A stretch of 64,000 nucleotides of DNA from Dendronephthya gigantea (GCF_004324835.1 NW_021163190.1:255242-319241); one strand, 5' to 3'; counted from the stretch's first letter, positions 24,201 to 64,000 are shown. Made by a program: numbers and translations. The notes: generated from the sequence alone by a model not told the origin.

Positions 24201-27200
24201 CTGTATTCTAAAAGCTAGACTAACGCCTGTATTCTAAAAGCTAGACTAACGCCTGTATTCTAAAAGCTTGACTAACGCCTGTATTCTAAAAGCTAGACTA
24301 ACGCCTGTATTCTAAAAGCTAGACCGACGCCTGTATTCTAAAAGCTAGACTAACGCCTGTATTCTAAAAGCTAGACTAACCCCTGTATTCTAAAAGCTAG
24401 ACTAACGCCTGTATTCTAAAAGCTAGACTAACGCCTGTATTCTAAAAGCTAGACTAACGCCTGTATTCTAAAAGCTAGACTAACGCCTGTATTCTAAAAG
24501 CTAGACTAACGCCTGTATTCTAAAAGCTAGACTAACGCCTGTATTCTAAAAGCTAGACTAACGCCTGTATTCTAAAAGCTAGACTAACGCCTGTATTCTA
24601 AAAGCTAGACTAACGCCTGTATTCTAAAAGCTAGACTAACGCCTGTATTCTAAAAGCTAGACTAACGCCTGTATTCTAAAAGCTAGACTAACGCCTGTAT
24701 TCTAAAAGCTAGACTAACGCCTGTATTCTAAAAGCTAGACTAACGCCTGTATTCTAAAAGCTAGACTAACGCCTGTATTCTAAAAGCTAGACTAACGCCT
24801 GTATTCTAAAGCTAGACTAACGCCTGTATTCTAAAGCTAGACTAACGCCTTATTCTAAAAGCTAGACTAACGCCTGTATTCTAAAAGCTAGACTAACGCC
24901 TGTATTCTAAAAGCTAGACCGACGCCTGTATTCTAAAAGCTAGACTAACGCCTGTATTCTAAAAGCTAGACTAACCCCTGTATTTTAAAAGCTAGACTAA
25001 CGCCTGTATTCTAAAAGCTAGACTAACGCCTGTATTCTATAAGCTCGCTCGCACTCAAACTCATTGAGTGGGAGGTCTTAAAATTCTCATAACGTTTCCA
25101 TAACGTTATTTTCAGTAGAATAGGGGCTTGATTTTCAGTGATTTACCTTCTGCCTCCAACTATTTAGAAAGAACTTTCTTATTGTCCAGCATTAACAAAA
25201 TATTTATGTCACACTCAATGAGATGAGTGTGAGTGTGCTTTTTGGATATGGGTGTATATCTCACGCTGCTTGTTCTAAGATTATTGACAAGTGTTCAAAG
25301 CCCAAAACAAAGAGATGTGCGTCCAGGGGCGTTACTAGAACGATGATTGGGGGGGGGGGTGAATATATTCATATATTCAGTTCTGCCCGACGGATTTCTA
25401 TTGTCAGCTATTGCAATTACAAAAAGAAATCCGTAGGGCAGAACTGGATATATGAATATTCACCCCCCCCCAATTATCGTTTTAGTTACGCCACTGTATG
25501 CGTCTTTTGTATCAAGTTATATCATCTTGATATGCGTTATGCCACCTTGAAAATATTCATCCATAAACACTGTAACTTACCCTACACCAAACGTGAATAT
25601 CCTGGTCTGAGCAAAGCCACTGGTTGCCAGTCTCAAAACCATCTCGGTTTCGGTCACGTGCCCATCACTGAGAACACACACGTTCCTCACGTGGACATTG
25701 GATCTCACCGGTAGTAGACTTAAAGCTCTTAAAATCTTCCAGAGATCAGTGGCTCCCATATCACTGGTGCGGTTCTAAATAGGAATGATAATGATTACAT
25801 GAAGTTTCCAACACAGCTAAAGTACGCGTTACTTTATAGTATTTTACTCTGTCTAATGTCAGATGATTTTACTCGTCAGTGGAAGAGTACTGTCAGTTAA
25901 TAAGTTAACAAAACTATCTGTCAGTGTCTCTTGTTAACCCATTAGCTTGCAATGCACCCAGATGTGGCCTTCTTTAGTATTTTACTCTGTCTAATGTCAG
26001 ATGATTTTACTCATCAGTGGAAGAGTAGTGTCAGTTAACAAGTTAACAAAACTATCTGTCAGTGTCTCTTGTTAACCCATTAGCTTGCAATGCATCCAGA
26101 TGTGACCTACTTTAGTATTTTACCTGTCTAATGCCAGATGATTTTACTCATCAGTGGAAGAGTACTGTCAGTTAATAAGTTAACAAAACTATCTGTCAGT
26201 GTCTCTTGTTAACCCATTAGCTTGCAATGCACCCAGATGTGACCTACTTTAGTATTTTACCTGTCTAATGCCAGATGATTTTACTCATCAGTGGAAGAGT
26301 ACTGTCAATTAATAAGTTAACAAAACTATCTGTCAGTGTCTCTTGTTAACCCATTAGCTTGCAATGCTCCCAGATGTGGCCTACTTTAGTATTTTACTCT
26401 GTCTAATGCCAGATGATTTTACTCATCAGTGGAAGAATACTGTCAGTTAATAAGTTAACAAAACTATCTGTCAATGTCTCTTGTTAACCCATTAGCTTGC
26501 AATGCACCCAGATGTGACCTACTTTAGCATTTTACTCTGTCTAAAGCCTGTCTAAAAAGTTGTTAAAACGTCCTTTGAACTTACTTTAACAAAAGCAGCA
26601 GCTTCTTTCATACTTTTCTCCGTCTTCTCAACACTTGACGGAAATAACTCCAACCATTGGTTTCCAAAAGCAACGATATTAAACCTAGCGTTTGCTGGTA
26701 GTTTGTTCAGGGCAAGAAGTAGAATTTTCTTTGCATTGTCAATAGAAGATCCCTGTATTGATAAAAACTCGATAAAATAGGTTTGAAAAATAAGAAAATT
26801 TAGTGTGAAGCTTGAATCTTCCATTAAACTGAACGATATGAAAGCCATGAATCGTTCCTACCTTCATTGAACAAGACACATCCAATAGGAAGACATATTC
26901 GACATTTTCAATCGGGTCTGCCTCGAATTCAGGGTAAAAAGACAACATACAAGCCTGGATAAAAACAAAAATGGCTGAAACGAAATGGCTGAACACGAAA
27001 AACAAAAACGTTTTTCGTGTCCTCATATAGGGGAAGCTTTTGGGTGGAAAAGGTGATTTTCATGAACGCGAGAAAAAACTCACAAATGCTTCAAAATCTT
27101 TAGTGATATCAGACAGTACAGTTTACAACTTTCAGAGTTTTCTGACCGTAAAAGTGCTGGACAAATGAAGCAAGAAAGAATCGCTTAATTTTAACATCAA

Positions 27201-30200
27201 AATTATGGTAATCGATCGAAGTTTGTTTCCAGAGTTTTCTCACCGTAAACGTGCTGGACAAATGAAGCAAGAATCGCTTAATTTGAACATCTAAATTATG
27301 GTAATTGTTCGAAGTTTGTTTCCTTAAAGAATACGACCAGCATGCAGATTTTCTTTATTAGAAAGTCAGAAATGATATTCAACCTGCGAGTCTGCGTTTT
27401 CGGGATGTCTCTCGGCCCACATTCGTGGAACGTGGATTTCCGCGAGACCAATCAACAATTGAAAACCATTGTCCAGTTTTTGACCTTCCTTCATCTCCAG
27501 AACCGCTTTTGTTGCTGTTTTCTGTAAGAAAGACTAGACATTTGAGTGTGTGCATGGTTGGTAGATAAGGTAGGGTGTAAAGGTGGGGGCACAGAGATGG
27601 GGGTGTAGAGTTGGGGGTACAGAATGGGGATGTAGAGGTCGGAGTGTGGAGGTGGGGGTGTAGAGATGCGGTGTAGAGGTGGCGGCTCAGAGATAGGGGT
27701 GTAGAGGTGGGGTGTAGAGGTGGGAGTGTAGAGATGCGATGCGGAGGTGGGGGATACAGATATGGAGGTGTAGAGGTACGGTGTAGAGATGCGATGCAGA
27801 GGTGGGGGTACAAAGATGAGGGTGTAGAGGTGGGTGTGTAGAGGTGGGTGTGTAGAAGTGGGGGTGTAGGGGTGGGGGTGCAGGCCACAGACCTTTAATC
27901 TAACAACGTGTGTAGGACAGTCCAGTGTTCTTATATCGAACGGCATCTCAACAGCAATGTGAACAGAAAGATCACAAGAATCATCATCACGAGCTTGAAA
28001 ACTCTGAAGAACATTCTATAGTACGGAAAACACCACAGTTAATTTAGAGGAAACATCAACTAAACTAACTTTATTTATACTGGATAGCTCTAACAGTTCT
28101 AAACTGTTCTTCCTAGAGATCCAGTAAGGATCATCTCTTATTGATCCAGTGTTACTACAGGAGGAAACCTAAACTAAACTAACTTTATTTATACTGGATA
28201 GCTCTAACAGTTCTAAACTGTTCTTCCTAGAGGTCCAGTAAGGATCATCTCTTATTGATCCAGTGTTACTACAGGAGGAAACCTAAACTAAACTAACTTT
28301 ATTTATACTGGATAACTCTATCAGTTCTAAACTGTTCTTCCTATGAACTTCACTATCGATCATTACAAAAGTAAACTATACGTAAAATCGTACTTGTGTG
28401 CTTTCTTTCAGCGCCTGATCACGTGACCATGGTGCGAGGGAACCGGGGAGACTGAACACTATATTCTCATCTTCAACAGCAAGCTCAGCAACGTACGTTA
28501 TTTTGATCAAGACGGTCGCTCCGGGAGGGATATTACCAACACTAACCGTAAACACATCCTGCGATGAAAACAGACCAAAATACATAAAATATTCTCATCT
28601 ACCGATGTTTCAGAATATCTCGCCAATTTTTTAAAAAAAACTACATGCGGACTACCAAACTTAACCAATGATAATCAACCGATTATTGGGGAAATTAAAA
28701 GTGTCAGAAAACCTACTGAATCGATATCAAAATCACTAGGTCTTGCTTGGTCGGGAGACTATGATTCACTTAAACTGTTTGTTGCTGAATCACTAAGGTT
28801 ACAGGGTACCTGGACTCAACCTGGCGGGGATAGAAAAGTGTTTAATTTTTACTAAAGCAATAAGATGATGACGTGAACTTACTGGCGTCTCCTCGTCCAT
28901 CAAATAAGCCCCATGCCCCTCGCTGATGGCTTTCTTGTACTCCTTGTGGGCTTGTTCTTTCTCCTTTACTTCACCAACGATATGTTTACCATTGATAAAT
29001 GCCTCAAAACCACACACTAGAGAAAGATAGTTTAGTTTAGGTTTCCTCCTGTAGTAACATTAGATCAATAAGAGATGATCCTTACTGGATCTCTAGGAAG
29101 AACAGTTTAGAACTGATAGAGCTATCCAGTATAAATAAAGTTAGCTTAGTTTAGGTTTCCTCCTGTAGTAACACTGGATCAATAAGAGATGATCCTTACT
29201 GGACCTCTAGGAAGAACAGTTTAGAACTGATAGAACTATCCAGTATAAATAAAGTTAGTTTAGTTTAGGTTTCCTTCTGTAGTAACACTGGATCAATAAG
29301 AGATGATCCTTACTTGATCTCAATAAAAAAATCTTGAAAAAATAAGAAGATTTAAATCTATACCAGCAGCCATGTCATCCAATGGAAAAACATATTTGGC
29401 TTCAATTGGTTTGTCACTTGAATTCTTATAAACTTGCATGACAACAACTTTCGCACAGAGGTCCAAAAGTTTCGCTCTAATATGAACGGACTTTAAAGGC
29501 ACCAAGGTGTCTCCATCAGATCGCAATCCTGGTTTCACTTTGGTCAGTGGATCTTCAAGAGCCTCGATATCAGAGGTTGTAATATTTGGAGCAAATTCTT
29601 CTTCATCCGATGATGACATTGCTTCCTCGTCAAGAGAAATTGCTGTTGTGGGTTCAACGAGAACATCTTCACTAAAAATTGTTGGGAAAAGAGAGATGCA
29701 AAATGTCTTTCTCTGAAGGCCAATATTTCTTGCAACTTGCAATGCAATTCTACTTTTGAGAGATCTAAATTTGGCCACCAGGAAACTTTTCTGTTTATTA
29801 CACTCCACGTTCGTTTCTTACACTTACATTTTGAATACTCTGTACTAAATCACATGTCTTAAAAGTAGGATTGCATTGCATTAAGTTGCAAGAAAAATTG
29901 CACCGTGAAACACAACCTCGTTAACGCACCGTCTTGAGCACAAAAGACCCTGGGAACGAGGTAAGCGTGTAACACGGCTTTGACCTCGCTTGAACCTCGT
30001 TCCCCGAGCCCACGATTCCTCTGGCGAGAAAACAAAGGCTCTGGGATAATCTGAACCGGTTTGTAACCGTTTTCTGTATTTCAAAATTGGAACGGCGTGA
30101 ACGACTAATCAGAATAACTTCTGTTCAGGAATTTCCTTAACAAATCATTCAATATATATTCTTTCTTAGTACGATACAATAAAAATTTTTTACCGTTAAT

Positions 30201-33200
30201 CTATACATTTTTCTGTAATCTCAGGTCAATAGCGATGGTTTACAAGCAAATTTGTGGCGCTTTCTTGCTATATGGGAAAGCGAAAATCTTTCATTAATCA
30301 TAACCCTGATTTAAACCATTATTGAAATATTTGAAAAATGATTGTTTATATTCTTGTTTGCTTCTACAAAGAATCAAATTTCTAAAAACTAAATGTTTTG
30401 AAATTTAGGAACCACTTATTACGAGTTTTGTGCCATAGTTCTTTGCGAAAAACATGCATAAAATTACATGATCTACAATTACAATGCATAAAATTACATG
30501 ATCTACAATGATACATATCTACAATCAAATATTTTGAATATCAACTCCAAATAGTTCATATTATGATTATGGCGATATTTCACATAAACGAGCTAATCAA
30601 CATCCTACGTCAATTTTCACACAACAACAGCAGTGGACATCCATCTTCCTTGAGACATTTCTGGAAGTTCTTCCCAAGAATACCTTTCAAAGTTGAAACC
30701 TTCAACTGACTTCAGCATTCCTTGCCCACCCCACCCTCCCAGGACTACAATGTTGTTTTCAATAACACCTGCAGTACATGTACTCCTCTTACATCTCATT
30801 GATGGCAGCATGTGACTTTGTTCTGTCTTGACATTGTATATGATAACTGTATTTAATGTGTTGCCATGTTTGTCATCACCACCAATAACAACAATGTTGT
30901 CTCCCCATCTCACAGTTGCCATGAGACTCACCTCATACGGCAGTGGTGACAACTGTTTCAGCTCATTCTTCTTTATATCGTACAGTACGACACTGCTGAG
31001 GCTGTCTTTGTAACCGCCAGTTGTACTTCCACCAACTATCAACAAATTATCATCAAATATTTCCATGCTGTGATATAGTCTTGGTTCTGGCATTCTTGAT
31101 AAGGTCTTCACAGTATAGGGAGGAACAAGCTGGACTGCTCTGATCAAGTCAGAGAAACCATTTCCATTACCACCTCCAGAGACTATCAACTGATCATTAT
31201 ACAGCACACTGCTGTGGTCTCGCAACTTCTCAGGTAGTTTAACAGCACAGTCACTCCAGTGTGTTGAGAGATCAGGGTTTGGGTCAATATTCATTCTAAT
31301 CATATCATCAACACTGCCAGACCCACCACAGTCACCCCCAGCTATAGTCATATGATTGTTATAAATAAATGAAGTCGCTCCAAATCGTTTCTTTGGCATT
31401 GATTGTAATGGTGACCATGTTCTTTGACGCCAGTTAAACATCTCTACAGAGTTAGTCAATTAACCTCCAGCAACAATAATATTTTCCTTATCACCACTTG
31501 GTCTATTTATTACTTTTCTTGTGTTTTCCTCTATCTTGCCCTCCATCGTGAAAAGAACGTCCTTCATTTCATCAAAAGCTCTGACCAAAGCTGTTTTCAA
31601 TCCTTTGACTTCGTTGTTAACCGCTTCGAGTTTTCCTTCCATATCTGATTTCATATCTGCTTTTAAATCCGCAGTATTTTTGTCTATTTTTCTCTCTAAA
31701 TTTGTTATTTTAGTTTCAATTGTTATATTATTCTGCGCCATTCTTTCCTCCATATCTGCCAAAGTTTTCGTCATTTCTCCGCACGAGTGACACTTCAACT
31801 TTCGGAATTCACAGACTTCATTTTCATGGTGAATAAGATCACACTTGTTGACAATTAAACCACAGCCTTGGTTTCTACAAACGGCTGGTGTATATCCACA
31901 TGTATCTTCATGGCGGTCAAGATGCTGTAATTCTACAACTTCTTGACAACCTCTGTCGATGTAAACGCAACGAATTTTTGATTCATTCAAATAATCTTTT
32001 ATCATTCTTTGTGGTTCGGCCAAAGTCTCTACGGTCAGTTCATCAGCACACGTTGGGCATGTTTCAGAATTTTCCAGATGTTTCGTAATGCAACAACGGC
32101 AAAAAGAATGCTGGTTTCTCGAACACATAACCGGCTCTTTCAAGACATTGAAGCAAATCTGACAGAGGAAATTTTGATTGATTTTGTCCACAAACCTTTC
32201 TTCATCGTAGCCTTGTATGTATGAAGCCATATTTCACGTCGTTCTTGTGTCGTAATAATAAAGCAAGTTCTGTGTTGTTTGTAGCTCTGTAGTATAAACC
32301 TCGCTGTATAGACTGAATATAGATACAGTGTTCGTTCTTGGAGAAGTCTGTGTATTTGCTTGAAATCTTTTGATCGGTTTAGAAAATGGAGACAAATATT
32401 GCTTCCCCTTCGGTAAGGTGTTTAAAGCGTCTTTATGAAAAAAAATATATTTTTGTCAGGTCTTGTGACGAAAGGTCATCACCTCTTGTTCAAATACTGA
32501 CTTGCAATTGGTTGTGTTTTAGTGTATATATTGGCAGGAATTTCTTATATCATTATATGGAAATGAGTTCGAAGAAAACGATACTTTAAACCAAGAAATA
32601 TCAATCATAATAATGAAATATTTAGACTAGAAATATCAATCATAATAATGAAATATTTAGACTAAGTCTAAGTACATTGTAATCGATGTTGATAAAGTCT
32701 GCATCAGAATTTGTCTCAAATCTTTTACAAAATCATGTGTTAAAACATACAAACTGCCTTTATTTTAAAATATTTCACACAACGCTACACAGACTGACAT
32801 ATATTTTGTTTAAAATATCGCAACGGGTGGTCGCCAGGCAATATTATTATTGGTTTCAACTGGTTTTATCAGTGAGGGTTTTTAATTGCAGTGTTTTAAC
32901 GTTTTAACAGTCGACTAATTCCTAAGTATTAAGACGTGTCTTACTGACGTTTGTCGTAGCTTATTTGCTAGAAAAAAATGTCGCCATTATGAAATTTTGC
33001 AACAACTTTGTTGCAAAATATCAGGATTTGTAATTGTTCAGCGAAATAATATATGAGAATGATATTCCTCGGTCTGTTGTATAAAAAGGTATTGAATCAC
33101 AATTGGTCAATCACAATTCCGTATTCTGTAGTTAACTACGATAATTATCTGTCGCATTGCATTGGATCAATCCTTTTATATAATTTAAACTCACATTCGC

Positions 33201-36200
33201 TCTTGTCAGCTTACTCCGTACAATGTATATAGCTCAGTGACCAGAGCTGTTCACGTCATCGCTCATGACGTAATGTTTGATTTCTGAAGGAAGCCTGGAA
33301 GTCTGGTAATTGCTAAATTCTTCTCAACTGTCCCAAGGTTAGGACTTAAAACTATATAAATTTCACTCGATTTTCCATCAACCAAAAACTCACACGTAAA
33401 AATGGTTCGATTCGACTCAAATGAAAAATAATTTTGCCATTTGTACGAGAGTTTTCCTACGAATTTAGAAATAACTTTGTAAGAAAGTGTCTTTATAACC
33501 AAACTTATCCATGCAAAAAGGAATAAAAATATTGACAATGGATCGTTTAGGGATTTCCTTAATAAATCATTTAATATTTATTCTTTCTTAGTACGATACA
33601 ATATGAAAATTTTTACCATTAATCTATTTACAAACATTTTGCTGTAATTTCAAGTAAATAGCGATGGTTTACAAGCAAATTTGTGGCGCTTTCTTGCTAT
33701 ATGGGAAAGCGAAAGTCTTTCGTTAATCATAATCCTGATTTGAACCGTTATTGAAATATTTGAAAAATGATTGTTTATATTCTTGTTTGCTCCTACAAAG
33801 AATCAAATTTGTCTAAAAACTAAATGTTTTGAAATCTAGAAACCACTTGTTACGAACTTTGTGCCATAGTTCTTTGCGAAAAAACATGCATAAAATGACA
33901 TAATATATCTACAACTAAATATTTTGAATATCTACTCTAAATAGTTCATATTATGATTATGGCGATACTTCACATAAACGAGCTCATCAACATCCTACGT
34001 CAATTTTCACACAACAACAGCAGTGGACATCCATCTTCCTTGAGACATTTCTGGAAAATCTTCCCAAGAATACCTTTCAAAGTTGAAACCTTCAACTGAC
34101 TTTAGGTCTCCTCCCTCACCCGACCCTCCCAGGACTACAATGTTGTTTTCAATAACAACTGCAGTACATCCCGACCTCTTACATCTCATTGATGGCAGCA
34201 TGTGACTTTGTTCTGTCTTGACATTGTAAATGATAACTGTATCAAATGCATTGTTATGTTTGTCAACACCACCAATAAAAACGATTTTGTCTCCCCATCT
34301 CACAGTTGCCATGTGACTCACTTCATACGGCAGTGGTGACAACTGTTTCAGCTCATTCTTCTTCATATCGTACAGTACGACACTGCTGAGGCTGTCTTTA
34401 AACTTGTGAGTTGTTCTTCCACCAACGATCAACAAATTATCATCAAATATTTCCATGCTGTGATATCTTCTTGGTTCTGGCATTCTTGATAAGGTCTTCA
34501 CAGTATAGGGAGGAACAAGCTGGACTGCTCTGATCAAGTCAGATGAACCATTTCCATTATCACCTCCAGAGACTATCAACTGATCATTATACAGCACACT
34601 GCTGTGGTGACACAACTTATCAGGTAGTTTAACAGGACAGACACTCCAGTGTGTTGAGAGATCAGGGTTTGGGTCAATATTCATTCTAATCATATCATCA
34701 ACAATGCCAGACCCATCACAGAGACCCCCAACTATAGTCATATGATTGTTATAAATAAACGAAGTCGCTCCATCACGATTCTCTGGCATTGATTGTAATG
34801 GCGACCATGTTCTTTGACGCCAGTTAAACATCTCTACAGAGTTAGTTTTATAACCTCCAGCAACAATTATATTTTCCTTATCACCACTTGGTTTATTTAC
34901 TTCTTTTCTTTTGTTTTCTTCTTGCTTGCCCTCCATCGTGATAAGAACGTCCTTCATTTCATCAAAAGCTCTGACCAAAGCTGTTTTCAAACCTTTGACT
35001 TCGTTGTTAACCGCTTCGAGTTTTCCTTCCATATCTGCTTTTATATCTGCGACAGCGGTACTTCTTGCCATATTCCTCTGTAAATTTGTAATTTTAGTTT
35101 CAATTATTACATTATTCGTCTCGATATTTCCCATTCTTTCATCCATATCTGCCAAAGTTTTCGTCATTTCTCTGCACGAGTGAGACTTCAACTTTCGGAA
35201 TTCACAGACTTCACTTTCATGGTGAATAAGATCACGCTTGTTGACAATTAAACCACAGCCTTGGTTTGTACAAACGGCTGGTGTATATCCACATGTATCT
35301 TCATGCCGGTCAAGATGCTGTAATTCTACAACTTCTTGACAACCTCTGTCGATGTAAACGCAACGAATTTTTAACTCATTTATAAGATCTTTTACCATTC
35401 TTTGTGGTTCGGCCAAAGTCTCTACGGTCAGTTCATCAGCACATGTTGGGCATGTTTGAGAATTTTCCAGATGTATCGTAATACAACAACGGCAAAAAGA
35501 ATGCTGGTTTCTCGAACACATAACCGGCTCTTTCAAGACGTTGAAGCAAATCTGACAATGAAAATTTTGATTGATTTTGTCCACAAACCTTTCTTCATCG
35601 TAGCCTAGTATATATGAAGCCATATTTCACGTCGTTCTTGTGTCGTAATAATAAAGCAAGTTCTGTGTTGTTTGTCGCTCTGTAGTATAAACCTCGCTTT
35701 ATAGACTGAATATATATACAGTGTTCGTTCTTAGAGAAGTCTGTGTATTTGCTTGAAATCTTTTGATCGGTTTAGAAAAGGCAGACAAATATCGCTTCGG
35801 TATAAAGTGTTGAAAGCGTCTTTTGTTGACAGGAATTTGTAGTATGAAAAAAGATATTTTTAACATGTCTTCATTGTCTTGTGACAAAAGCTCAGCATCT
35901 CGTATTCAAATACTGACTTGCAACTGGTTGTGTTTATATTGGTAGGAATTTCTTATTTCATTATATGGAAAGAAAAATCAATCATAATAATAAAATATTT
36001 AGACGAAGTACATTGTAATCAATGTTGATAAAGTCTGTATCAGAATTTGTCTCACATCTTTTACAAAATCATGTGTTAAAACATACAAACTGCCTTTGTT
36101 TAAAAATATTTCACACAACGCTACACAGACTGATATATATTTTGTTTATAATATTGCAACGGGTGGTTGCCAGGCAATATTATTATTGGTTTCAACTGGT

Positions 36201-51636: not shown

Positions 51637-51676
<40 letters not shown>

Positions 51677-52497: not shown

Positions 52498-52608
52498 GAT
52501 TGCATCAACAAGGTTTTGTTGATGAAATAAAAATGAAATTTTTCTTGCGTAAAAAAGCAAAAAATGAGCGAAATTCTGCTTCGAGCTGATGCAATACACG
52601 AGTGACGG

Positions 52609-53559: not shown

Positions 53560-53820
53560 TTAAGCAATCAGCACTTCTTTGTCGTCAAAGGCCAGTTTTT
53601 CAGGCAACGGCTCAGCTTCGTCATCCTCCATTTCAAATTCAGCCTTAAAATCGTTGCCCTTGCTGATTTCATAAGCTTTCTTGCTCTTGCGACAGCAACA
53701 CATAGCACAGCACATCATGGATGCCAAGACGACAAGGACCAAGCCGACAAGAATTGCAACTCGCGCGCCAAATGGAAGCTTATGGAAACTGGAACAAAGG
53801 CTTTTGCCGTGGTGATGTTT
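53560..53820 (-). CDS. TM-protein exon 6 (TM helix and cytoplasmic tail, stop at 53560-53562)
   Basis: ORF 53560-53742 extended to the acceptor ttatctag|AAACATCACCAC. Confidence 0.55.
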   Translation of the reverse strand, partial: KHHHGKSLCSSFHKLPFGARVAILVGLVLVVLASMMCCAMCCCRKSKKAYEISKGNDFKAEFEMEDDEAEPLPEKLAFDDKEVLIA

Positions 53821-56800
53821 CTAGATAATGTAGATATTTATTACATATTATATTTATTACATATTATATTTATTACATATTAAATTTATTACATATTATA
53901 TTTAAGGGTAGATATTTACTACAACCTGAGGCGGTTCGAGGTTTAAATAACAAAGAGGAATTTCATTTTAAACTAATCGGTGTATTTGGTGACATTTTTG
54001 AGGGAAAGCCAATCAGAATGCGTACATTTTAATTACTTCATGTAAAATGGTACATATTGTACTTTTTATCAAAATTTATGCATTCTGATTGGCTTACTGA
54101 AAATGTAAACAAACTTGCTGATTGGCTAAAACGAAATTCTAAATAAATCGATTGAAATCGTCTGAAAAACCACGAAAAAAATCGATTTTTTAAAGTTTTT
54201 TTTTAAGTCCTGGCAAAATATTGCTGTAAGAATAAACTTCACGCATACGAATTCAAAAGTTTACTCTAGAAAGCAATCGTATTTTGGTATAATACTAATC
54301 CTAATATTCACAAAAAGCATTTTCTTAAAAATAAACCGTACAAATTCTCCGCTATTAAACATGAGCCCGGTTACCGAGATTTAAAGAAGCGTTAAATTGA
54401 CTTTGAGTTTTTGAAATGAGTAAATAACATGATCCTGGTAGTCGTGAAGTCATTCTAACAATAGCATGCAATGTTTCTGTTTCAAAAAGACTTTTCTCAA
54501 TACTTAAAATTCCGTTTTACGCTTCGTTAAATCTCCGTAACCTGGCTCATGCGAAGAACGTTTAAAATAAGAATTTGTTTACTTTCTCAGGCTTAGGGCG
54601 TGTTTATATGATCCCGTCTAGCCGGGACGGGATGTTTTCATCCCGCTTAGCCGGGAAACTCGCCTACGCGGGATGGCGTGTTTATATGGAGTTCATTTTG
54701 TGGTGCAGGTTCCTTCGACGGCATGTTTTATTGTAGAAAACGAGTATGCCAATATATACACATGCTCCTAATGTATGTTAATCGCGAATCATCTCGGCCA
54801 AGCGGGATGGAGTGTTTATATGGCAATTTCTCGTCCTGTCTAAGCGGGATCCCGGCAAGAAGTGCCGAAGAAAAGTGGTCATATAAACACTAATTAGCGT
54901 TTGTACTACAAGCGGGATCTCGGAAACTGTCCCGTCCCGGCTAGACGGGATCATATAAACAGGCCCTAAGTTGAGCTACCGTTGAATCAAGGACATATGC
55001 TCCACTTTGCTAAAAAGCATCTTCGATAGTTACTAATACTACGCTATTTTGTTTAAATGTGACTGAGTTTTGAACTTTACGACAGTGGTATGAATTTTAT
55101 CCACACATTTTATACAAAACTTTTGAAAGCTTACATGATGATGACCATATCCTTTCTCGTCTGGCAGAGATGGATCCAAAAATCTTTTCGGCTTTTTGTC
55201 ATCTAGAAGTTTCAAATAGTTCGGATATTGTTACCAAATTTAGCTCCATCAGTTCTAAACTGTTCTTCCTAGAGGTCCAGTAAGGATCATCTCTTATTGA
55301 TCCAGTGTTACTACAGGAGGAAACCTAAACTAAACTAACTTTATTTATACTGGATAGCTCTATCAGTTCTAAACTGTTCTTTCTAGAGATCCAGTAAGGA
55401 TCATCTCTTATTGACCCAGTGTTGCTACAGGAGGAAACCTAAACTAAACTAACTTTATTTATACTGGATAGCTCTATCAGTTCTAAACTGTTCTTCCTAG
55501 AGGTCCAGGAGGGATCATCTCTTATTGATCCAGTGTTACTACAGGAGGAAACCTAAACTAAACTAACTTTATTTATACTGGATAGCTCTATCAGTTCTAA
55601 ACTGTTCTTCCTAGAGGTCCAGTAAGGATCATCTCTTATTGATCCAGTGTTACTACAGGAGGAAACCTAAACTAAACTAACTTTATTTATACTGGATAAC
55701 TCTATCAGTTCTGAACTGTTCCTCCTAGAGGTCCAGTAAGGATCATCTCTTATTGATCCAGTGTTACTACAGGAGGAAACCTAAACTATATTTATATTGG
55801 ATGAACAAGATACAATAACATACTTTTTCCACAGTATCTGGACAACTCAGCTTTTTTAATGTTTGATTCCTCGAACTTAACCGCAGCAATTGTTCGTCTG
55901 AATTCTTTGCCATTCACATCCATATGAATTGTCAGCACCTGAGTAGATTAGATTGATTTTTAAAGCTATTAAAGTGTTTAATATCCTTATGCATTCAACA
56001 GGACTCTTGATTCTTAAGCCCTGGTCAAACGAGAATGATAGTTGATGAGAGTTGAGAAGCGAGAGTTTGCACGAGAGTTTTCCAAACTCTCGATGCGCCG
56101 GTCAAACGAGAATGAGAGTTGAGAACGAGAGTTGATTACGGCGCGCATTAATTTCGTCCTTACTCCACTTCGTTTTGCTATTTTTTTGTTTCTGCCCGTT
56201 GTTTTCAGAAGATTTCTTTTTTTTTTTCAAAAAAATTGCAAACCGCTAGCTGTTTTGCAACTCTCATCAACTCTCATGACCGATCAAACGCGCCCAAACT
56301 CTCATCAACTCTCATCAAAATTTGAACCAGTTCAAAGTCAATGAGAGTTGATGAGAGTGCACGAGAGTGTATGAGAGTTCGCGGTCAAACGCAAGCGAGA
56401 GTTGCAACTCTCATCAACTCTCATTCTCGTTTGACCAGGGCTTAAAGGTTTCATCCATAAAAATTACCTGAACATCGACTTGTTCAACTCGCTTTTCATT
56501 GATGAATTGCACTTGTTCTTCGATCAAATATTGATGTCCCGATTCCAGCTCCTTTCTCATCACCATTACGTGAATTATGACAGGAAGAATGCGAACATCT
56601 TTGGCAGAGTAAACTGTGAAATGAATACACAACAATTAGCCCAGAACTTATCCAAATCTTCTCTGTCAAAAGAATTTAGGCTGTATGCACATGAAGGTAA
56701 ATCAGTTATGATTTTTGGCACTTCACTCGAGGTAGGTAAATTCTAATGGTTCTTAGGGTGTTAATTTCGAGTGGAATTATACACACTTCAAATTCAAGCC

Positions 56801-58765
56801 AGGAACAGTTGATGGAAAATGAGTCAACTATCGGTCCTCCGGCAGAAATCGAACCTATGCTTTTGCGATGCCGGTGCAATGCTCTTGCCACTGAGCTACA
56901 GAGGTAGCTGACAAGAGCAAGCGTGGTTAGTGTGCACATGATGGTAATCATCTGTGTGCACATGAGCGTCGTTTTCGAACATTCTCAAAATCGTTTTCAT
57001 CCAGATTATTGCTTTGACACTTTGTCAACATGATCCAAGGGAAAATATGCTGAATATGTTAAATTAGCTTCAAATTGACTGTGTTTGAAACAGTTTGAAA
57101 TGAAAACGAAAATGTAAATGCGTGCACATGCATAGCCTTAGAATGAAAAAGCTGAACCTGACTGCACCATTAGTGGAAGGTGTAAAGTCTGATTCAAAAG
57201 CTATGCTGGAAACTTAGTTTCAAAATATCACTGCTGTAGAAAACATTCAAAGTGAAGAATATATTTATAATAGCAAATAAATTTAGGTTGTTCGTACCAA
57301 TCTCAGCAGTGAGGTCGTACTTCGTAAGAACATCTAGTTCTGTGAGTTTCCCATTAATTCTGACACTGTCTTCCTGGATTGTAATGTTCAATTTCACCTG
57401 AGAATTAATACAACAGCATTGTGAGCAATAAATTATTTATTAAATGTTAAAGTAGGTCACATCTGGGTGCATTGCAAGCTAATGGGTTAACAAGAGACAC
57501 TGACAGATAGTTTTGTTAACTTATTAACTGACAGTACTCTTCCACTGATGAGTAAAATCATCTGGCATTAGACAGAGTAAAATACTAAAGTAGATCACAT
57601 CTGGGTGCATTGCAAGCTAATGGTTATCACAGATAGTTTTGTTTACTTGGTAATGACAATGATCAAGTGGTGAGTAAAATCATCTGGCTGATGGAACTTA
57701 TAAAATAAATAAACGTTTATAAAAGTACATTTAGAGACGCCTACTATTGCAAAGTCATTGCTAAATTCAGCTGAGGCAATCTTAAAGACACAGCTAGCAA
57801 CTTTGAGGAATTTTTCCCGTTAACAAGAGGCAAAATTGTGCTTTGTCATGTTTTTGTGGGGGAGGAATTTCATCAACAACACGCAATAATAGTTATGTAA
57901 TAACTTGCTTTCTATAACGTTATATAAAAATATAGATTAAGAAAACTTCCGACCGCAAATTTCCCACTTAAAACGACTATCTGAAGACGTGCAGGTGTTT
58001 TCAAAAAGGGTATTAAAACAAGACTTGTACAATATGAATAATGTTCAGATATTGACACATGCTGGGAATATTTCGTCGCTTTTATTTTGCGATTTTATGA
58101 ACAACGATCTTAGTTGATAAAACCAAGTTTCGTTTCGATTAAAAGCAGGAGATTTTGAAGCGATGTTTTGAAGCTTCGATCGCAGTTTTGTTCAGATCAA
58201 TCGAAGCAATTTTTGCGTTTTAAAAGGAAAAAGATTAGAGAAAGTTTTGGCAGCTAAAGGCGCCATAGACAAGGACATGTCACAACTTATTTCCTTCTTT
58301 CCCAAATTGGATTCCCGGTTACAAAAGAAAACAAAACAAAGTACCAACGTTTCCTCGAAGAAAATACACTGCAATTCAACTGCCTTGGCTGCAGATTTTC
58401 GTTTTGATTCAAAACGAAACAATCTGAACTTTGTGTGAAAGCCGTGTCGCAGTTAAATTCAAAGTATTTTAAGCTCTTTCTATGCCGAATATAAACGCCG
58501 CATTTCTATGTTTACAAATACAAGACTCTATCATCCATTACTGGGCTACTTTTAACTAGTTTTCTCTTCGAATTCATGCACAAATACTTACAATAACTTC
58601 GGTTTCTCGTCTGCCGTTTGCGGAGTCTTCCTCCTCGATGATTTTCACAGAGATAGAGAGCTTCTCTTTTGAATGTTTTGTGCCAGATTTGAGGTCGTTT
58701 TCGCCGGCAAAAACTGCCTGGAATATCGCCAAAAACAAGACGAAATGGCCAAGCACTTCAAACAT
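53560..58765 (-). CDS. type-I single-pass membrane protein of unknown family, 6 exons (58592-58765, 57298-57397, 56468-56613, 55824-55938, 55135-55202, 53560-53820), about 285 aa
   Basis: Exon 1 has the signal peptide MFEVLGHFVLFLAIFQAVFAG; beta-rich ectodomain exons (VKLNITIQEDSVRINGKLTELDV..; VYSAKDVRILPVIIHVMVMRKELESGHQYLIEEQVQF...; VLTIHMDVNGKEFRRTIAAVKF..); His-rich juxtamembrane segment; TM helix VAILVGLVLVVLASMMCCAMCCC with a Cys cluster; acidic cytoplasmic tail ..EFEMEDDEAEPLPEKLAFDDKEVLIA*; all junctions GT-AG with matching phases. Confidence 0.55.
54591..54966. mobile_element. TIR element (about 375 bp): ggcttagggcgtgtttatatgatcccgtctagccgggacggg ... cccgtcccggctagacgggatcatataaacaggccctaag, with internal cgggatgg[ac]gtgtttatatgg direct repeats
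   Basis: Terminal inverted repeats of about 40 bp seen directly; lies in the intron 53821-55134. Confidence 0.55.
55135..55202 (-). CDS. TM-protein exon 5
   Basis: aacttctag|ATGACAAAAAGCCG...CATCATCAT|GTAAGC. Confidence 0.5.
55235..55795. repeat. SatA array (reverse, about 5 units) filling the TM-protein intron 55203-55823
   Basis: SatA homology; starts 35 nt from one exon and ends 30 nt from the other. Confidence 0.9.
55824..55938 (-). CDS. TM-protein exon 4
   Basis: ctactcag|GTGCTGACAATTCAT...GGAAAAA|GTATGTTA. Confidence 0.5.
56020..56450. mobile_element. MITE (about 430 bp) with TIR gccctggtcaaacgagaatgagagttgatgagagttg and (gagagttga)n subterminal repeats
   Basis: Inverted termini ccctggtcaaacgagaatga.. 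/ ..tcattctcgtttgaccaggg; internal motifs match the 78-bp minisatellite at 48790-50090. Confidence 0.6.
56468..56613 (-). CDS. TM-protein exon 3
   Basis: ORF 56414-56635; ttcacag|TTTACTCTGCC...GTTCAG|GTAATTTT. Confidence 0.5.
56826..56905 (-). other. tRNA-like sequence (D-arm GTAGCTCAGTGGCAAGAGCA and T-loop GGTTCGATTTC) without a convincing acceptor stem; probably a tRNA-derived SINE fragment or pseudogene
   Basis: Motifs and spacing seen on the minus strand; similar tRNA-like 3' half at 38030-38100 (GGTCGCTGGTTCGATTCCCACAGTGG). Confidence 0.25.
57298..57397 (-). CDS. TM-protein exon 2
   Basis: attctcag|GTGAAATTGAAC...GAGATTG|GTACGAAC. Confidence 0.5.
57435..57665. repeat. SatB (reverse, about 1.5 units) in TM-protein intron 1
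   Basis: SatB homology. Confidence 0.85.
58592..58765 (-). CDS. TM-protein exon 1 (signal peptide)
   Basis: ORF 58574-58765; donor ATT|GTAAGTATT. Confidence 0.45.
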
Positions 58766-59230: not shown

Positions 59231-59279
59231 AGATCCAGATAATCCTATGTCTATGTTAATAATATATACAATGCAAGCC

Positions 59280-59610: not shown

Positions 59611-59612
59611 AA

Positions 59613-59779
59613 ATGGCTCATCTTCGAAGACTCGCATCGCTTTCCACGAGAAGATCTTTGAGGAAATCCTTGTCAAGTTACTTGTATTCGTCTTCGACAA
59701 AACTTCAAAACAACGTCGCTTTATGTGGTACCACTTATCGTCATGTTAGTTCGAGTGGAGCAAAATTACAGCCGGACAC
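59613..59779 (+). CDS. FDX2: FDX2 exon 1
   Basis: ATG at 59613; donor GTAAGT at 59780. Confidence 0.75.
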
Positions 59780-61158
59780 GTAAGTCGATGAAAATGTATA
59801 TTTAAATATGTATATATTTCACGTTTTAGTGTTTACTCGAAGTCATATGGCGATTGAGTGATTAATTAAAACGAATTCCCGTTTTTATGTAATTCTTCAA
59901 TGTTCACTTGGCTATATTTTGCTAAAAAAAACGACACCAACAATAATTTTACTCATGGGAAGAGTTGTTAACCCATTAGCTTGCAATGCACCCAGATGTG
60001 ACCTATTTAAGTATTTTACTCTGTCTAATGTCAGATGATTTTACTCATCAGTGGAAGAATACTGTCAGTTAATAAGTTAACAAAACTATCTGTCAGTGTC
60101 TCTTGTTAACCCATTAGCTTGCAATGCACCCAGATGTGACCTATTTAAGTATTTTACTCTGTCTAATGTCAGATGATTTTACTCATCAGTGGAAGAGTAC
60201 TGTCAGTTAATAAGTTAACAAAACTATCTGTCAGTGTCTCTTGTTAACCCATTAGCTTGCAATGCACCCAGATGTGTTTTTTTAGTTTTCAAATAATTTA
60301 GGAGGATATTGCCTCCTTTTGACTGGCCAACCAGTGACTGGCACCGGATTTCACGGCTTCAAAGGTTTGTTTGTTTCTTCTCCAGAGCATCAATCACATT
60401 TCACGATCGAGATGGCGACAAGAAAACAGTTTCAGCCAAATATGGAGATTCACTTCTTGATGTTGCAAAGAATAATGATATTGATTTGGAAGGTAAGAAT
60501 GACTACACTGCTCTCTTTTAGCCATGAGTTTATTAACACGTTTTGAATATCTTCTCTTCATCAAATTTCACATCGAGGTGCTTGTGAAGGAACTCTGAGC
60601 TGTTCAACTTGTCATCTTATATTTGATCCGGACGAATTTGCCAAGTTGGATCTACCTGAACCAGATGATGAAGAACTAGATATGCTTGATCTGGCCTATG
60701 GTTTGACACCAACGTAAGAGATGATCCTTACTGGACCTCTAGGAAGAACAGTTTAGAACTGATAGAACTATCCAGTATAAATAAAGTTAGTTTAGTTTAG
60801 GTTTCCTCCTGTAGTAACATTGGATCAATAAGAGATGATCCTTACTGGAACTCTAGGAAGAACAGTTAAGAACTGATAGAGTTATCCAGTATAAATAAAG
60901 TTAGTTTAGTTTAGGTTTCCTCCTGTAGTAACACTGGATCAATAAGAGAAGATCCTTACTGGACCTCTAGGAAGAACAGTTTAGAACTGATAGAGCTATC
61001 CAGTATAAATAAAGTTAGTTTAGTTTAGGTTTCCTCCTGTAGTAACACTGGATTTTTTCTCCAGATCAAGACTAGGATGTCAGGTTGACGTAACTGAAAA
61101 GTTTGATGGAATTACTGTAAAAGTACCTGAAGCAACGAGAGACGCAAGAGATTTGTAA
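59613..61158 (+). CDS. FDX2: mitochondrial [2Fe-2S] ferredoxin (adrenodoxin-type, FDX2-like), 4 exons: 59613-59779, 60302-60492, 60578-60713, 61065-61158
   Basis: Spliced product [20 protein letters not shown]... (transit peptide) ...[109 protein letters not shown]; cluster-ligating Cys motif [11 protein letters not shown]...C; junctions cacg|GTAAGT, tttag|G, GAAG|GTAAGA, cgag|GT, ACG|GTAAGAG, ttctccag|A with consistent phases. Confidence 0.85.
59965..60285. repeat. SatB (about 2.2 units) filling most of FDX2 intron 1
   Basis: SatB homology. Confidence 0.9.
60302..60492 (+). CDS. FDX2: FDX2 exon 2
   Basis: ORF 60309-60521 frame; donor GTAAGA at 60493. Confidence 0.8.
60578..60713 (+). CDS. 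FDX2: FDX2 exon 3 (Cys ligands)
   Basis: Acceptor catcgag|; donor GT at 60714, which is the first base pair of a SatA unit. Confidence 0.85.
60717..61060. repeat. SatA (about 3 units) making up essentially the whole of FDX2 intron 3 (60714-61064)
   Basis: The intron starts gtaagagatgatccttactgg (the SatA unit has caataagagatgatccttactgg) and ends ..tagtaacactggattttttctccag. Confidence 0.9.
61065..61158 (+). CDS. FDX2: FDX2 exon 4 (stop TAA at 61156-61158)
   Basis: Acceptor ttttttctccag|ATCAAGACTAGGATGTCAGG. Confidence 0.85.
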
Positions 61159-61574
61159 CCGCCTCTGGAAATGGAATTTACTGTGGATGTAACATTAAAT
61201 ATTCTAAACATGCTACAAACGTGTGAAACTTCTAGCAATAAATTTTATTATTTTAATAATTTATTGTACCTGAGGATGGCCGCGCTATTGACATAATTTT
61301 TCTGTCTTCCAAATACTACAGTATTTTGATAATAATAAATGTATTTTATTATTTCTGGTTTCTTCTGTGGCAATATCATTGAATGAAGAGTATTTAGAAT
61401 ATTGTGAATGTTTTATCAGTTGAGATTATGTACAAACATAAATATGTCTAATGTTTACTAAGTCATTTTCTGCAGTCCATTGCTCAAGTCAGACATAACC
61501 AATGCCTACATCAATACAATTTCCTGATAAATATGTACTCTCTCATATTTCCAACATTATAACAATTTTCTCAG

Positions 61575-61925
61575 TTAATAGTTAACAAAACTATCTGTCA
61601 GTGTCTCTTGTTAACCCATTAGCTTGCAATGCACCCAGATGTGACATACTTTAGTATTTTACTCGGTCTAATGTCAGATGATTTTACTCATCAGTGGAAG
61701 AGTATTGTCAGTTAATAAGTTAACAAAACTATCTGTCAGTGTCTCTTGTTAACCCATTAGCTTGCAATGCACCCAGATGTGGCCTACTTTAGTATTCTAC
61801 TCTGTCTAATGTCAGATGATTTTACTCTTCAGTGAAAGAGTACTGTCAGTTAATGAGTTAACAAAACTATCTGTCAGTGTCTCTTGTTAACCCATTAGCT
61901 TGCAATGCATCTGAATGTAATCTAT
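61575..61925. repeat. SatB array (about 2.4 units)
   Basis: SatB homology. Confidence 0.9.
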
Positions 61926-62149
61926 TAAGACATTAAGTTATGTTTCTTCATTTTTTCACTGTCTATTATTGACCAATCTCATGATGAAGCACCCCACAGT
62001 TCCTGTCAGCTCTCATTCGTCTGATCATCGCCTGGTGCCTTCTTCTCATTGTGTGTTCCTAAAATGTCCTTTTCAACCTCTTCTAGACTGATATTTTTAT
62101 CATTCAAGGCCTTCTACAAAACAAACAATAGGAAATCTATCAAAATTAT

Positions 62150-62760
62150 ATCTTTTGTTAACTCATTAGCTTGCAATGCACCCAGATATGACCTATTTTA
62201 GTATTTTACTCTGTCTAATGCCAGATGATTTTACTCATCAGTGGAAGAGTACTGTCAGTTAATAAGTTAACAAAACTATCTGTCAGTGTCTCTTGTTAAC
62301 CCATTAGCTTGCAATGCACCCAGATGTGACCTACTTTAGTATTTTACTCTGTCTAATGTGAGATGATTTTACTCATCAGTGAAAGAGTACTGTCAGTTAA
62401 TAAGTTAACAAAACATCTGTCAGTGTCTTTTGTTAACCCATTAGCTTGCAATGCACCCAGATGTGACCTACTTTAGTATTTTACTCTGTCTAATGCCAGA
62501 TGATTTTACTCATCAGTGGAAGAGTACTGTCAGTTAATAAGTTAACAAAACATCTGTCAGTGTCTTTTGTTAACCCATTAGCTTGCAATGCACCCAGATG
62601 TGACCTACTTTAGTATTTTACTCTGTCTAATGCCAGATGATTTTACTCATCAGTGGAAGAGTACTGTCAGTTAATAAGTTAACAAAACATCTGTCAGTGT
62701 CTTTTGTTAACCCATTAGCTTGCAATGCACCCAGATGTGACCTACTTTAGTGTTTTATAA
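62150..62760. repeat. SatB array (about 4 units)
   Basis: SatB homology. Confidence 0.9.
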
Positions 62761-63039
62761 ATCTTTGTGTTAATCTGAGCTTACCAAGACACAGGCCCGA
62801 TACGACTTGAACAATTTTTCACATGGTTCTGATTTAGTGTCGCCACGAAGGAAGTTTTCTGTGTACCAAGTATTGAAACATATATCATATTTTTTCTTTA
62901 GGTCATTGCATTCTTCAGAAATACTGTTCATGATTTCTTTAATACAATGTTTCAGTTTTCACCACCCCTCTAATGATTAAAATTGGAACAAATTTTATGT
63001 TTGAGTTTGACAGTACAGCATATATAAAGCTCAGTTGAA

Positions 63040-63260
63040 AAATCTGGCAATAATAATCCATGCTCAGCAAATCCTAATCCACGAATTTAATCCATGAGAT
63101 TAAGCTAGGATTAATTCAGGTTTTGTTCTGATTGGTTCTGATTGCGACTTCTGAGAATCTGAGCAATCACAGAATTCTCAATTTTTTATTTTATGGTTAC
63201 ATTTAGGATTAGGGGTGTGACTAATCATCCACAACCTAATCTAAGCCCTAATCCGAACCT
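63040..63260. repeat. degenerate telomere-like island (aatcctaatcc..., ttaggattagggg, ccctaatcc, cctaatc) flanking a central pair of CCAAT boxes (ctgattggttctgattg), directly upstream of the MSTO1 start
   Basis: Seen directly. Confidence 0.5.
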
Positions 63261-63324
63261 AATCTCAAGGAATAAACTCGTGTATTTAGGATTACGGAAT
63301 CTGTTTCGTGAGGTCAATTCAGAA

Positions 63325-63915
63325 ATGGCGGATCAAGGAGAAAGTCTGGATTTAGCTTCTCCTAAAGAGAGAGAAGTTATCACTTTTCAAGTTGGAAATT
63401 ACAGCAATTTTGTCGGCGGACACTACTGGAATTTACAAGAGAGCTTGTTCAAAGAGGCCTCTGCTAAAAAGAACTCTTTTAATGAACTCTCGCAGGATAT
63501 TTTGTACAGACACGGGTTGAATTTTGAAACTGGTCGAAGCTCATATAAGCCTCGTGTTGTATCATTTGACTTGAAAGAAAACGTTAGAAACTTTCCTAGC
63601 GCAGATGAAACGGCAACAGACGATACTGATGATGGTATTTTTTGGGATGGAAATGTGGAGAAATACGACAGAGGAAGTAAAAATAGCGGTTCAAATACAG
63701 CCGATGAAGTTGGTTTATTTTGGACAGATTTCACGTTGTCTTGTTTCCACGATAAATCTTCGCAAGTCGTTGACCTTCTGCATAATCAGATGTCTGAAGG
63801 ATTTGATCATTTTGGCTGTGGAGAGATGCTCTTTAAGTCTGGAAAGTTTTACAACGAGTTCGAGGACAGGCTGCACTTTTTTTCAGAGGAGTGCGATAGG
63901 TTACAAGGCTTTCAG
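63325..63915 (+). CDS. MSTO1: misato (MSTO1/DML1) homolog, first coding exon (197 codons); the gene continues beyond the window
   Basis: ORF 63193-63951; Met at 63325 begins MADQGESLDLASPKEREVITFQVGNYSNFVGGHYWNLQE (misato N-terminal tubulin-like motif); ..EFEDRLHFFSEECDRLQGFQ| then donor GTCTGT at 63916. Confidence 0.85.
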
Positions 63916-63919
63916 GTCT

Positions 63920-64000
63920 GTTTTTTACAGTACTCTTCCACTGATGAGTAAAATCATTTGACATTAGACAGAGTAAAATACTAAAGTAGGTCACATCTGG
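63920..64000. repeat. SatB (reverse orientation) starting 4-10 nt downstream of the MSTO1 exon-1 donor
   Basis: gtactcttccactgatgagtaaaatcatttgacattagacagagtaaaatactaaagtaggtcacatctgg is the reverse complement of the SatB unit. Confidence 0.85.

Follow-up and report, generated by a model that had tools for sequence, protein, structure and literature searches.

A largely intronic tandem repeat of the octocoral Dendronephthya gigantea as a probable descendant of the coral transposable element group CMITE

A stretch of 64,000 nt from the genome of the octocoral Dendronephthya gigantea (GCF_004324835.1 NW_021163190.1:255242-319241; hereafter the window) contains a tandem repeat, SatB, whose blocks lie mostly within introns and come close to filling two of them. 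This leads to the question as to what kind of sequence SatB is, and whether its insertion gave rise to the introns in which it is now found. The analysis presented here indicates that SatB is probably a satellite-like, tandemly amplified descendant of CMITE, a group of MITEs (miniature inverted-repeat transposable elements) described from stony corals, and that it settled in introns which already existed.

A first-pass annotation of the window had recognized SatB as a second tandem family, unrelated to the 114-bp SatA repeat (of which blastn finds eleven blocks in the window), and both Tandem Repeats Finder and blastn bear this out. The unit, however, is not of about 148 bp as given in that annotation: Tandem Repeats Finder measures it at 138 bp (137-138), and calls arrays at 25837-26548 (5.2 copies, 96% matches), 59965-60276 (2.3 copies, 99%), and 61571-62757. 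A blastn search of the whole window with a dimer of the consensus locates seven blocks (Table 1), and none before 25.8 kb. These comprise between 0.6 and 5.2 units, with lengths of 77-719 nt as seen within the window, and all seven agree with a single consensus at 96.8-98.8% identity. Block 1 is prolonged to ~26571 by an end piece that is degenerate and has an internal deletion, while in block 4, where the blastn match begins at 59965, a deleted first piece extends the start to 59945. Stop codons are present in all six frames of the repeat.

The anatomy of the unit provides an indication of its ancestry. Each SatB unit is composed of TTAA, a MITE body of 105 nt, a further TTAA and a spacer of 25 nt (CAAAACTATCTGTCAGTGTCTCTTG). 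Within the body, the conserved CMITE core (ATTTTACTCTGTCTAATGCCAGATGATTTTACTC) stands between the left terminal repeat (CCCATTAGCTTGCAATGCAC) and its right counterpart, which is decayed. CMITE was defined in Acropora millepora and A. palmata as a group of ~100-bp MITEs of the piggyBac/TTAA type, which create TTAA target duplications, are linked to piggyBac-like transposons and possess an internal region (~60-75 bp, common across families) that is better conserved than their terminal repeats (Wang, Zhang, Meyer & Matz 2010, PLoS One 5:e10700; PMC2872659). In the same report, the terminal inverted repeats start with CC[C/T]T and end in GGG, the CCC start being a hallmark of piggyBac terminal repeats; one copy was found inside an intron, and tandem arrays with or without gaps were described as unusual and were put down to replication slippage. 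Chance is far from sufficient to account for the repeat: ten SatB units carry the published 34-nt core of the Acropora elements at two or three mismatches, where no match would be expected. Identity amounts to 32/34, or to 31/34 in those units that carry a TGTCAG variant, and both mismatches between the Acropora core and the commonest form of SatB are changes of CG to TG. Over a longer stretch, 45 of 51 positions are identical between SatB and the Acropora CMITE.

The ends of the element belong to a different terminal-repeat family. The left end present in SatB, CCCATTAGCTTGC, starts with CCCA instead of CC[C/T]T, its CCCATT being like the terminal repeat of AmiPB4 (PMC2872659), while the right end of every D. 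gigantea unit reads AATAAG-TTAA (..CAGTTAATAAG) and has lost the terminal GGG. SatB thus resembles CMITE in its internal core, its body of ~100 bp between TTAA sites, its CCC start, its head-to-tail arrays with a spacer or gap, and its occurrence in introns. It differs in being hosted by an octocoral rather than a stony coral, in its terminal-repeat family and the decay of the right terminal repeat in all copies, in a spacer of fixed length that sets the 138-bp period, and in the arbitrary edges of its blocks, which display no visible TTAA duplication; moreover, its copies in the window occur only as arrays or pieces of arrays, and never as solitary MITEs.

Relatives of SatB with better preserved ends were encountered in two settings. 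A scan of metagenome contigs with a 25-nt SatB motif returned 59 contigs, in which the motif sits in an element of ~100 bp of the form TTAA-CCCTTTAAGCCCTAAG...core...CTTAGGGCTTAAAGGG-TTAA, canonically TTAA-CCCTTTAAGCCC...GGGCTTAAAGGG-TTAA. This element is often arranged head to tail with a short spacer (AAAAACTATCTCCC), and the spacer motif adjoins 13 of 42 distinct metagenome copies of CMITE (seven on the right and six on the left, against an expectation of ~0.5 per side). In other anthozoan contigs, too, the 25-nt spacer of SatB is seen between CMITE copies or trailing them. An nhmmer profile built from 13 of the metagenome copies matches every SatB unit (E 1e-10 to 7e-14), and its collinear alignment starts at the left TTAACCC, takes in the core and the right GTTAA, and continues into the A-rich spacer. 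The second setting is that of the syntenic loci of five related species, which were recovered by a search with MSTO1 exon 1 and are termed L001, L003, L063, L064 and L065. Of these, L065 and, less cleanly, L063 hold an element that keeps both terminal repeats (CCCATTAAGCTGCAA... and ...CAATGGG), and L064 carries a canonical, TTAA-flanked CMITE copy of another terminal-repeat family.

Several observations weigh against a descent from CMITE as set out above, or limit what may be drawn from the evidence for it. The profile E-values are inflated in the core, since the contigs were picked by an exact 25-nt match to SatB, and the independent evidence is therefore that of the published Acropora consensus together with the collinear flanks. 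None of the 13 block edges visible in the window displays a TTAA duplication or a MITE terminus; the TTAA target duplication is seen at the solitary copy of L064 and at the metagenome copies. No autonomous piggyBac element was seen in the window, and no transposase was noticed by eye among its open reading frames (ORFs) of at least 45 amino acids, a set that was not scanned against Pfam. Given that both an autonomous element and TTAA duplications at the block edges are lacking, the transposition step is argued from the relatives and from the literature. On the latter point, a search for work on intronic tandem repeats of octocorals or of D. gigantea, or for later work on CMITE, found nothing beyond the report of Wang et al. 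(PMC2872659).

Six of the seven blocks are intronic. The first-pass annotation had placed SatB in the first introns of FDX2, EIF2S3 and a transmembrane (TM)-like gene, the last of these being a presumed gene model. The extent of filling is variable: only two introns approach 90% (PARP4 at 89%, TRIAP1-like at 90%), and SatB makes up 21-55% of three others. The intron in the VWA region of PARP4, reported to hold 750 nt of SatB in 810, is indeed filled for the most part, with 719 of 811 nt. A single intergenic array had been proposed at 61575-62760, together with the suggestion that an unannotated transcript be looked for at 61.5-62.8 kb. Such a gene was found, namely a TRIAP1-like gene (Pfam UPF0203, E 2.7e-25), whose exon 2 parts the supposed array into two blocks, of which that at 62151-62757 is intronic. 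The remaining one, block 5, occupies the gap towards which the FDX2 and TRIAP1-like genes converge (3' untranslated region or intergenic), its start being 97 nt 3' of the stop codon of the latter.

The syntenic loci permit the age of the host introns to be assessed. FDX2, TRIAP1 and MSTO1 occur in the same order in L003, L063, L064 and L065, where the TRIAP1-like gene is conserved and syntenic. In all four, the TRIAP1 intron interrupts the same codon and is without a SatB array; its length is 84 nt in L003 and ~360, ~860 and ~1540 nt in the other three, compared to 671 nt in D. gigantea. MSTO1 intron 1 (~120 nt) and FDX2 intron 1 (397 nt) of L003 likewise lie at the same positions and are free of SatB. 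Since these introns exist without SatB in relatives, SatB must have invaded old introns and did not act as an introner, at least for these three introns. The host introns are old and, in part by extrapolation from these cases, appear to have been short originally.

One insertion is itself of some age. In the closer species L001, SatB follows the MSTO1 exon-1 donor in the same unit phase and orientation as in the window, with GTCCGTTGACAG and TTCTCTT on the two sides of the junction in L001 versus GTCTGTTTTTTACAG and TACTCTT in the window. This common junction implies that the insertion predates the split of the two species, for which identity at 4-fold sites is 0.66. The gap between TRIAP1 and FDX2 presents a different history. 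L063 and L065 possess a CMITE-like element of 1.2 units in this gap, and a conserved orthology of the block 3' of TRIAP1 was considered and rejected, as these elements are in the orientation opposite to that of the window and were treated as independent insertions. This gap has been hit repeatedly, by SatB in the window, by the CMITE-like elements of L063 and L065, and by the CMITE copy of another family in L064. In L003, a further tandem repeat (unit ~62 nt, 8690-9130) occupies the gap 3' of TRIAP1, where the window has block 5.

The position of the blocks relative to the splice sites was also determined. The first-pass annotation had SatB begin 4-10 nt after the MSTO1 donor; homology does start close to exon 1, at a distance of 7-11 nt from its last base, the sequence being GTCTGTTTTTTACAG up to the exon end and TACTCTTCC from there onwards. 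Block 1 lies 36 nt from the PARP4 donor and 55 nt from the acceptor, block 6 lies 27 nt and 37 nt from those of the TRIAP1-like intron, and block 2 ends 37 nt from the acceptor of EIF2S3 intron 1. Overall, three introns have donor margins of 6-36 nt, the margin being wider in FDX2 intron 1 (165 nt) and in the TM-like gene (901 nt), and acceptor margins are 37-109 nt; the blocks stop short of the acceptors and so leave room for splicing signals. All splice sites are outside the repeat, 6-901 nt away, and SatB supplies none of them. With respect to the host genes it is found in both orientations (4 to 2). In the minus orientation, which is that seen in four host genes, each unit exhibits UUAACUGACAG, a good look-alike of a branch site plus AG. 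It recurs all along 25830-26548 and 62151-62757 when these are read on the minus strand, and in MSTO1 this look-alike comes directly after the donor (GUCUGUUUUUUACAG; 63917-63935).

The intronic location of most blocks is in itself close to what chance would produce. By a rough count, exons account for ~12 kb, introns for ~24 kb and the space between genes for 4.5-5 kb of the region of 23.7-64 kb, such that ~80-85% of its non-coding DNA is intronic by this estimate, and six intronic blocks out of seven are not in excess of that expectation. Two features of the distribution are not accounted for by chance, both of them noticed post hoc and in few genes. Five of the six intronic blocks occur in first introns, which random settling does not explain and which weighs against the reading given here; this excess may stem from a bias towards gene 5' ends or towards open chromatin. 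Furthermore, five of the seven blocks are located within 6.6 kb (57.4-64 kb).

Three alternatives to a CMITE descendant resident in older introns have to be weighed. Introner elements, as in Micromonas, fungi, dinoflagellates and the MITE-derived introns of Fritillaria, create introns, carry or generate splice sites and are usually strand-biased. That SatB is such an element, and that its insertion created the introns, is suggested by the two introns of which it makes up ~90%, much as introners make up most of the length of theirs, by the start of the repeat 7-11 nt past the MSTO1 exon, and by the branch-site look-alike of the minus orientation. Yet three of the six host introns (those of TRIAP1, MSTO1 intron 1 and FDX2 intron 1) exist without SatB in relatives, the repeat never includes a donor or an acceptor, it stands in either orientation, one block lies elsewhere than in an intron, and only 21-55% of three introns is SatB. 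SatB therefore differs from introners in residing in pre-existing introns, in either orientation and outside the splice signals, and this explanation is in our view close to negligible. The same findings bear on the proposal that the placement of SatB mirrors that of SatA, and that intron and tandem repeat are equivalent at this locus. The likeness holds insofar as SatB, too, lies mostly in introns; the equivalence, or a common origin of intron and repeat, is not supported, in view of the SatB-free orthologous introns, the two orientations, the absence of splice sites in SatB, the non-intronic block and the derivation of SatB from a known transposon family. A further possibility is that the arrays are kept for a host function, as intronic RNA (of a small nucleolar RNA (snoRNA)-like or ribozyme kind) or, in 5' introns, as a module for protein binding or regulation. 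In favour of this, the 34-nt core has hardly changed between octocoral and Acropora, the D. gigantea copies have stayed at the ancestral consensus though 4-fold sites diverged, first introns hold five of the six intronic blocks, and there is a weak SNORD59-like match (E 2.5). Against this, no Rfam family reaches threshold, the fold of the unit is not significant (z -1.9 and -0.07), the arrays stand in both orientations relative to transcription, orthologous introns elsewhere do without SatB, and the L001 copies are decaying in a star-like manner; conservation of the core is, moreover, already a trait of the CMITE family, for which selection for mobility is the simpler explanation. Such a function is thus very improbable. 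Conservation of the core between Octocorallia and Hexacorallia, blocks in six different genes, one of them at the junction common with L001, that have kept to the ancestral consensus despite divergence of synonymous sites, and the preference for first introns would nevertheless allow the core to be a protein-binding module, recognized by a transposase or a host factor, which might drive homogenisation of arrays between loci or serve the host close to gene 5' ends; we regard this narrower proposal as improbable also, if a little less so.

The alternative that deserves most attention is that a piggyBac-like transposase still moves SatB as whole TTAA-bounded units or arrays, in which case the ragged edges would be due to later deletions. 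The units are delimited by TTAA, their left end retains the CCC hallmark and the CCCATT of AmiPB4 (PMC2872659), canonical TTAA-flanked copies exist in related species, and the TRIAP1-FDX2 gap has received independent insertions of differing orientation in different lineages. As piggyBac prefers the 5' ends of genes, the bias towards first introns would also be in keeping with such a mechanism. It is at odds with the loss of the terminal GGG from the right repeat of every D. gigantea unit, with the lack of a TTAA duplication or MITE terminus at all 13 visible block edges (0/13), and with the visual check of window ORFs of at least 45 amino acids, which was made without a Pfam scan and yielded no transposase. 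We consider continuing transposition of this kind unlikely. Three other identities were tried and discarded. A ribozyme repeat of the retrozyme or hammerhead type had been suggested by CTGATGAG in the minus orientation, but Rfam cmscan returned none at E up to 10. A cluster of intron-encoded snoRNAs was rejected as the best match, to SNORD59, scores 17 bits versus a gathering threshold of 45, and there is neither a significant fold nor a single orientation. More generally, Rfam searches (whole window at gathering thresholds, PARP4 array at E up to 10) gave no relevant hammerhead or other ribozyme, snoRNA or microRNA, and RNA folding of the unit in both orientations was no better than that of shuffled sequences. 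Finally, a larger composite transposon with internal repeats, of the DTC84/Helentron type, was dismissed since the seven blocks are without common flanks.

Taking SatB as a CMITE descendant, a plausible course of events can be outlined. Ancestral copies would have entered TTAA sites by piggyBac-type transposition, and canonical CMITE copies with intact terminal repeats do persist in relatives. Next, replication slippage or unequal exchange would have turned MITE-plus-spacer units into head-to-tail arrays, in the way suggested for those of Acropora. A subsequent, recent phase of spread or homogenisation in D. gigantea may have proceeded by gene conversion, template switching or re-insertion of array fragments. 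The loss of the right GGG everywhere, the 97-99% identity to one consensus, and the arbitrary edges without TTAA duplication make this recent spread look independent of transposase and akin to recombination, which we infer to be rather more probable than its opposite; against it, the irregular edges could be a product of later erosion. An all-against-all comparison of 150-nt flanks detected none that are shared among the seven blocks. The recent spread also looks largely local, because five of the blocks are so closely spaced. In L001, by comparison, the copies are 84-90% identical to the window consensus and 74-80% to each other, which points to old copies decaying, star-like, from an ancestral sequence near the D. 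gigantea consensus. The blocks would be found in introns because most of the tolerated non-coding space in this gene-dense region is intronic, and the arrays would extend up to the margins that splicing needs, and no further.

Comparison with published systems offers a possible source of the spacer. CMITE-IN is a CMITE between direct repeats of ~23 bp, with TTAA at the joins (PMC2872659). Unequal exchange between its direct repeats would give MITE, TTAA, spacer and TTAA, with a period of ~135-138 bp, as in SatB; the SatB spacer may derive from a structure of this type. Also comparable are MITEs that contain tandem repeats and the Helentron-borne arrays of bivalves: short satellite-like arrays of 100-170-bp monomers that are scattered through euchromatic and genic DNA and derived from mobile elements have been reported in Donax trunculus (DTC84; PMC3879986) and Crassostrea gigas (PMC7492417). 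There, a larger element has the repeats as its core and conserved modules on their flanks, whereas in SatB the entire MITE plus spacer is the unit, without common flanks.

Table 1. Positions of SatB blocks, host genes and introns, SatA arrays of the last FDX2 intron, and other tandem arrays (window coordinates unless a locus is named)
Feature	Position	Strand	Details
SatB block 1	25830-26548	+	5.2 units; 97.4% to consensus; PARP4 intron
SatB block 2	51957-52116	+	1.16 units; 98.8% to consensus; EIF2S3 intron 1
SatB block 3	57442-57688	-	1.8 units, first one internally rearranged; presumed intron 1 of TM-like gene
SatB block 4	59945-60276	+	2.4 units; 97.8-99% to consensus; FDX2 intron 1
SatB block 5	61571-61908	+	2.45 units; not intronic
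SatB block 6	62151-62757	+	4.4 units; 97.7% to consensus; TRIAP1-like intron
SatB block 7	63924-64000	-	cut by window end; MSTO1 intron 1
PARP4 VWA-region intron	25775-26585	-	811 nt; GTAAGT and TTTAG splice signals; SatB 719 nt = 89%
EIF2S3 intron 1	51920-52443	-	524 nt; SatB 160/524 nt = 31%; Pfam GTP_EFTU
Signal-peptide/TM-like gene, presumed intron 1	57398-58589	-	1192 nt; SatB 247/1192 nt = 21%; exon 1 ~58590-58765
FDX2 coding exons	59613-59779, 60386-60492, 60578-60713, 61065-61158	+	product identical to XP_028415274.1
FDX2 intron 1	59780-60385	+	606 nt; SatB 332/606 nt = 55%
TRIAP1-like gene	62006-62931; exon 1 62785-62931, exon 2 62006-62113	-	Pfam UPF0203, E 2.7e-25
TRIAP1-like gene, only intron	62114-62784	-	671 nt; SatB 607/671 nt = 90%
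MSTO1 intron 1	starts 63917; exon 1 ends 63916	+	cut by window end
SatA, last FDX2 intron, window	60715-61053
SatA, last FDX2 intron, L003	8012-8258
SatA, last FDX2 intron, L063	6075-6379
SatA, last FDX2 intron, L064	1367-1534 and 6646-6884
SatA, last FDX2 intron, L065	6897-7727
Other array, 26 bp x 33	24188-25045		PARP4 intron
Other array, 77 bp x 17	48800-50100		EIF2S3 intron
Other array, 40/80 bp	52629-52963		just upstream of EIF2S3 start codon

The gene models on which the intron assignments depend are of differing certainty. Spliced by eye, the FDX2 exons yield the exact sequence of XP_028415274.1 from D. gigantea. Pfam VWA_3 runs unbroken over the splice around block 1 of PARP4 (E 3.7e-11 for the spliced flanking exons), and exons 1 and 2 of EIF2S3 can be read from the sequence, the start of exon 2 being followed by the motif GHVAHGKST. 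Pfam also finds PARP, VIT, Fer2 and GTP_EFTU, in support of the gene names originally assigned, and Misato domains are on record for homologues of MSTO1. The signal-peptide/TM-like gene is the least certain model, being based on ORFs and splice signals only, and a Pfam scan of it gave no match.

Some further features of the neighbourhood were recorded. The TRIAP1-like gene (minus strand) and MSTO1 (plus strand) diverge from a common interval of ~390 bp (62931-63325), an arrangement kept in L003, L063, L064 and L065. Two paralogues with RING/TRAF zinc-finger and kelch domains (30620-32233 and 34010-35626), one of them a single ORF of 539 amino acids, are on the same strand as PARP4 and are apparently nested in its large intron between the PARP and VIT exons. 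A tRNA gene at 56834-56905 (minus strand; Rfam tRNA, 36 bits) is situated either inside or between the genes that the minus strand carries near 56.4-58.8 kb, and is the only Rfam match above the gathering threshold in the window. Upstream of the studied locus, the segment 11000-19300 contains big near-duplicate segments, where, for instance, the short repeats of 12688-12782 are found again at 15888-15982 and proline-rich ORFs likewise come back several times; it looks like a segmentally duplicated region or one of repeated gene fragments.

Five species, that of the window included, carry SatA in one and the same orientation in the last intron of FDX2, at 80-98% identity to the window consensus; the L065 array holds a foldback (inverted-repeat) element at 7080-7430, a nested insertion. 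In the window, this array starts at the second base of the intron (CAAC followed by GTAAGAGATG) and ends 11 nt before the acceptor. When the window is set against L003, identity at 4-fold synonymous sites has fallen to saturation (0.33-0.47), and in one comparison by eye the neighbouring, unique FDX2 intron 2 displayed no similarity. A second SatA array, at 55241-55788 in the window and 3340-4130 in L003, is 94-98% identical between the two species, lies at a similar distance in both from the conserved last exon of a TM-protein gene (53560-53814 in the window, 2572-2829 in L003), and may be orthologous. Together with the other arrays listed in Table 1, these observations indicate that non-coding DNA at this locus commonly carries tandem arrays, and that these belong to several families.

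For the annotation of D. gigantea, the present analysis means that SatB should be recorded as an array of CMITE-derived, piggyBac-type MITEs, neither an unknown satellite nor an introner, and that the segment at 62.0-62.9 kb should be recorded as a TRIAP1-like gene. A candidate case of intron creation is thereby removed, and is replaced by a clean example of a MITE turned satellite-like family, one which enlarges short introns eight-fold while splice signals remain undisturbed. The type of element and its array-forming habit were already known, and the surprise is to this extent a moderate one. The CMITE group, described so far only in Acropora, is now extended to an octocoral, and its puzzling conserved core consequently spans the deepest split within the Anthozoa. 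It is this near-identity of the core across the octocoral-hexacoral divide, paralleled by the much better preserved SatA, that constitutes the most interesting residue of the locus.

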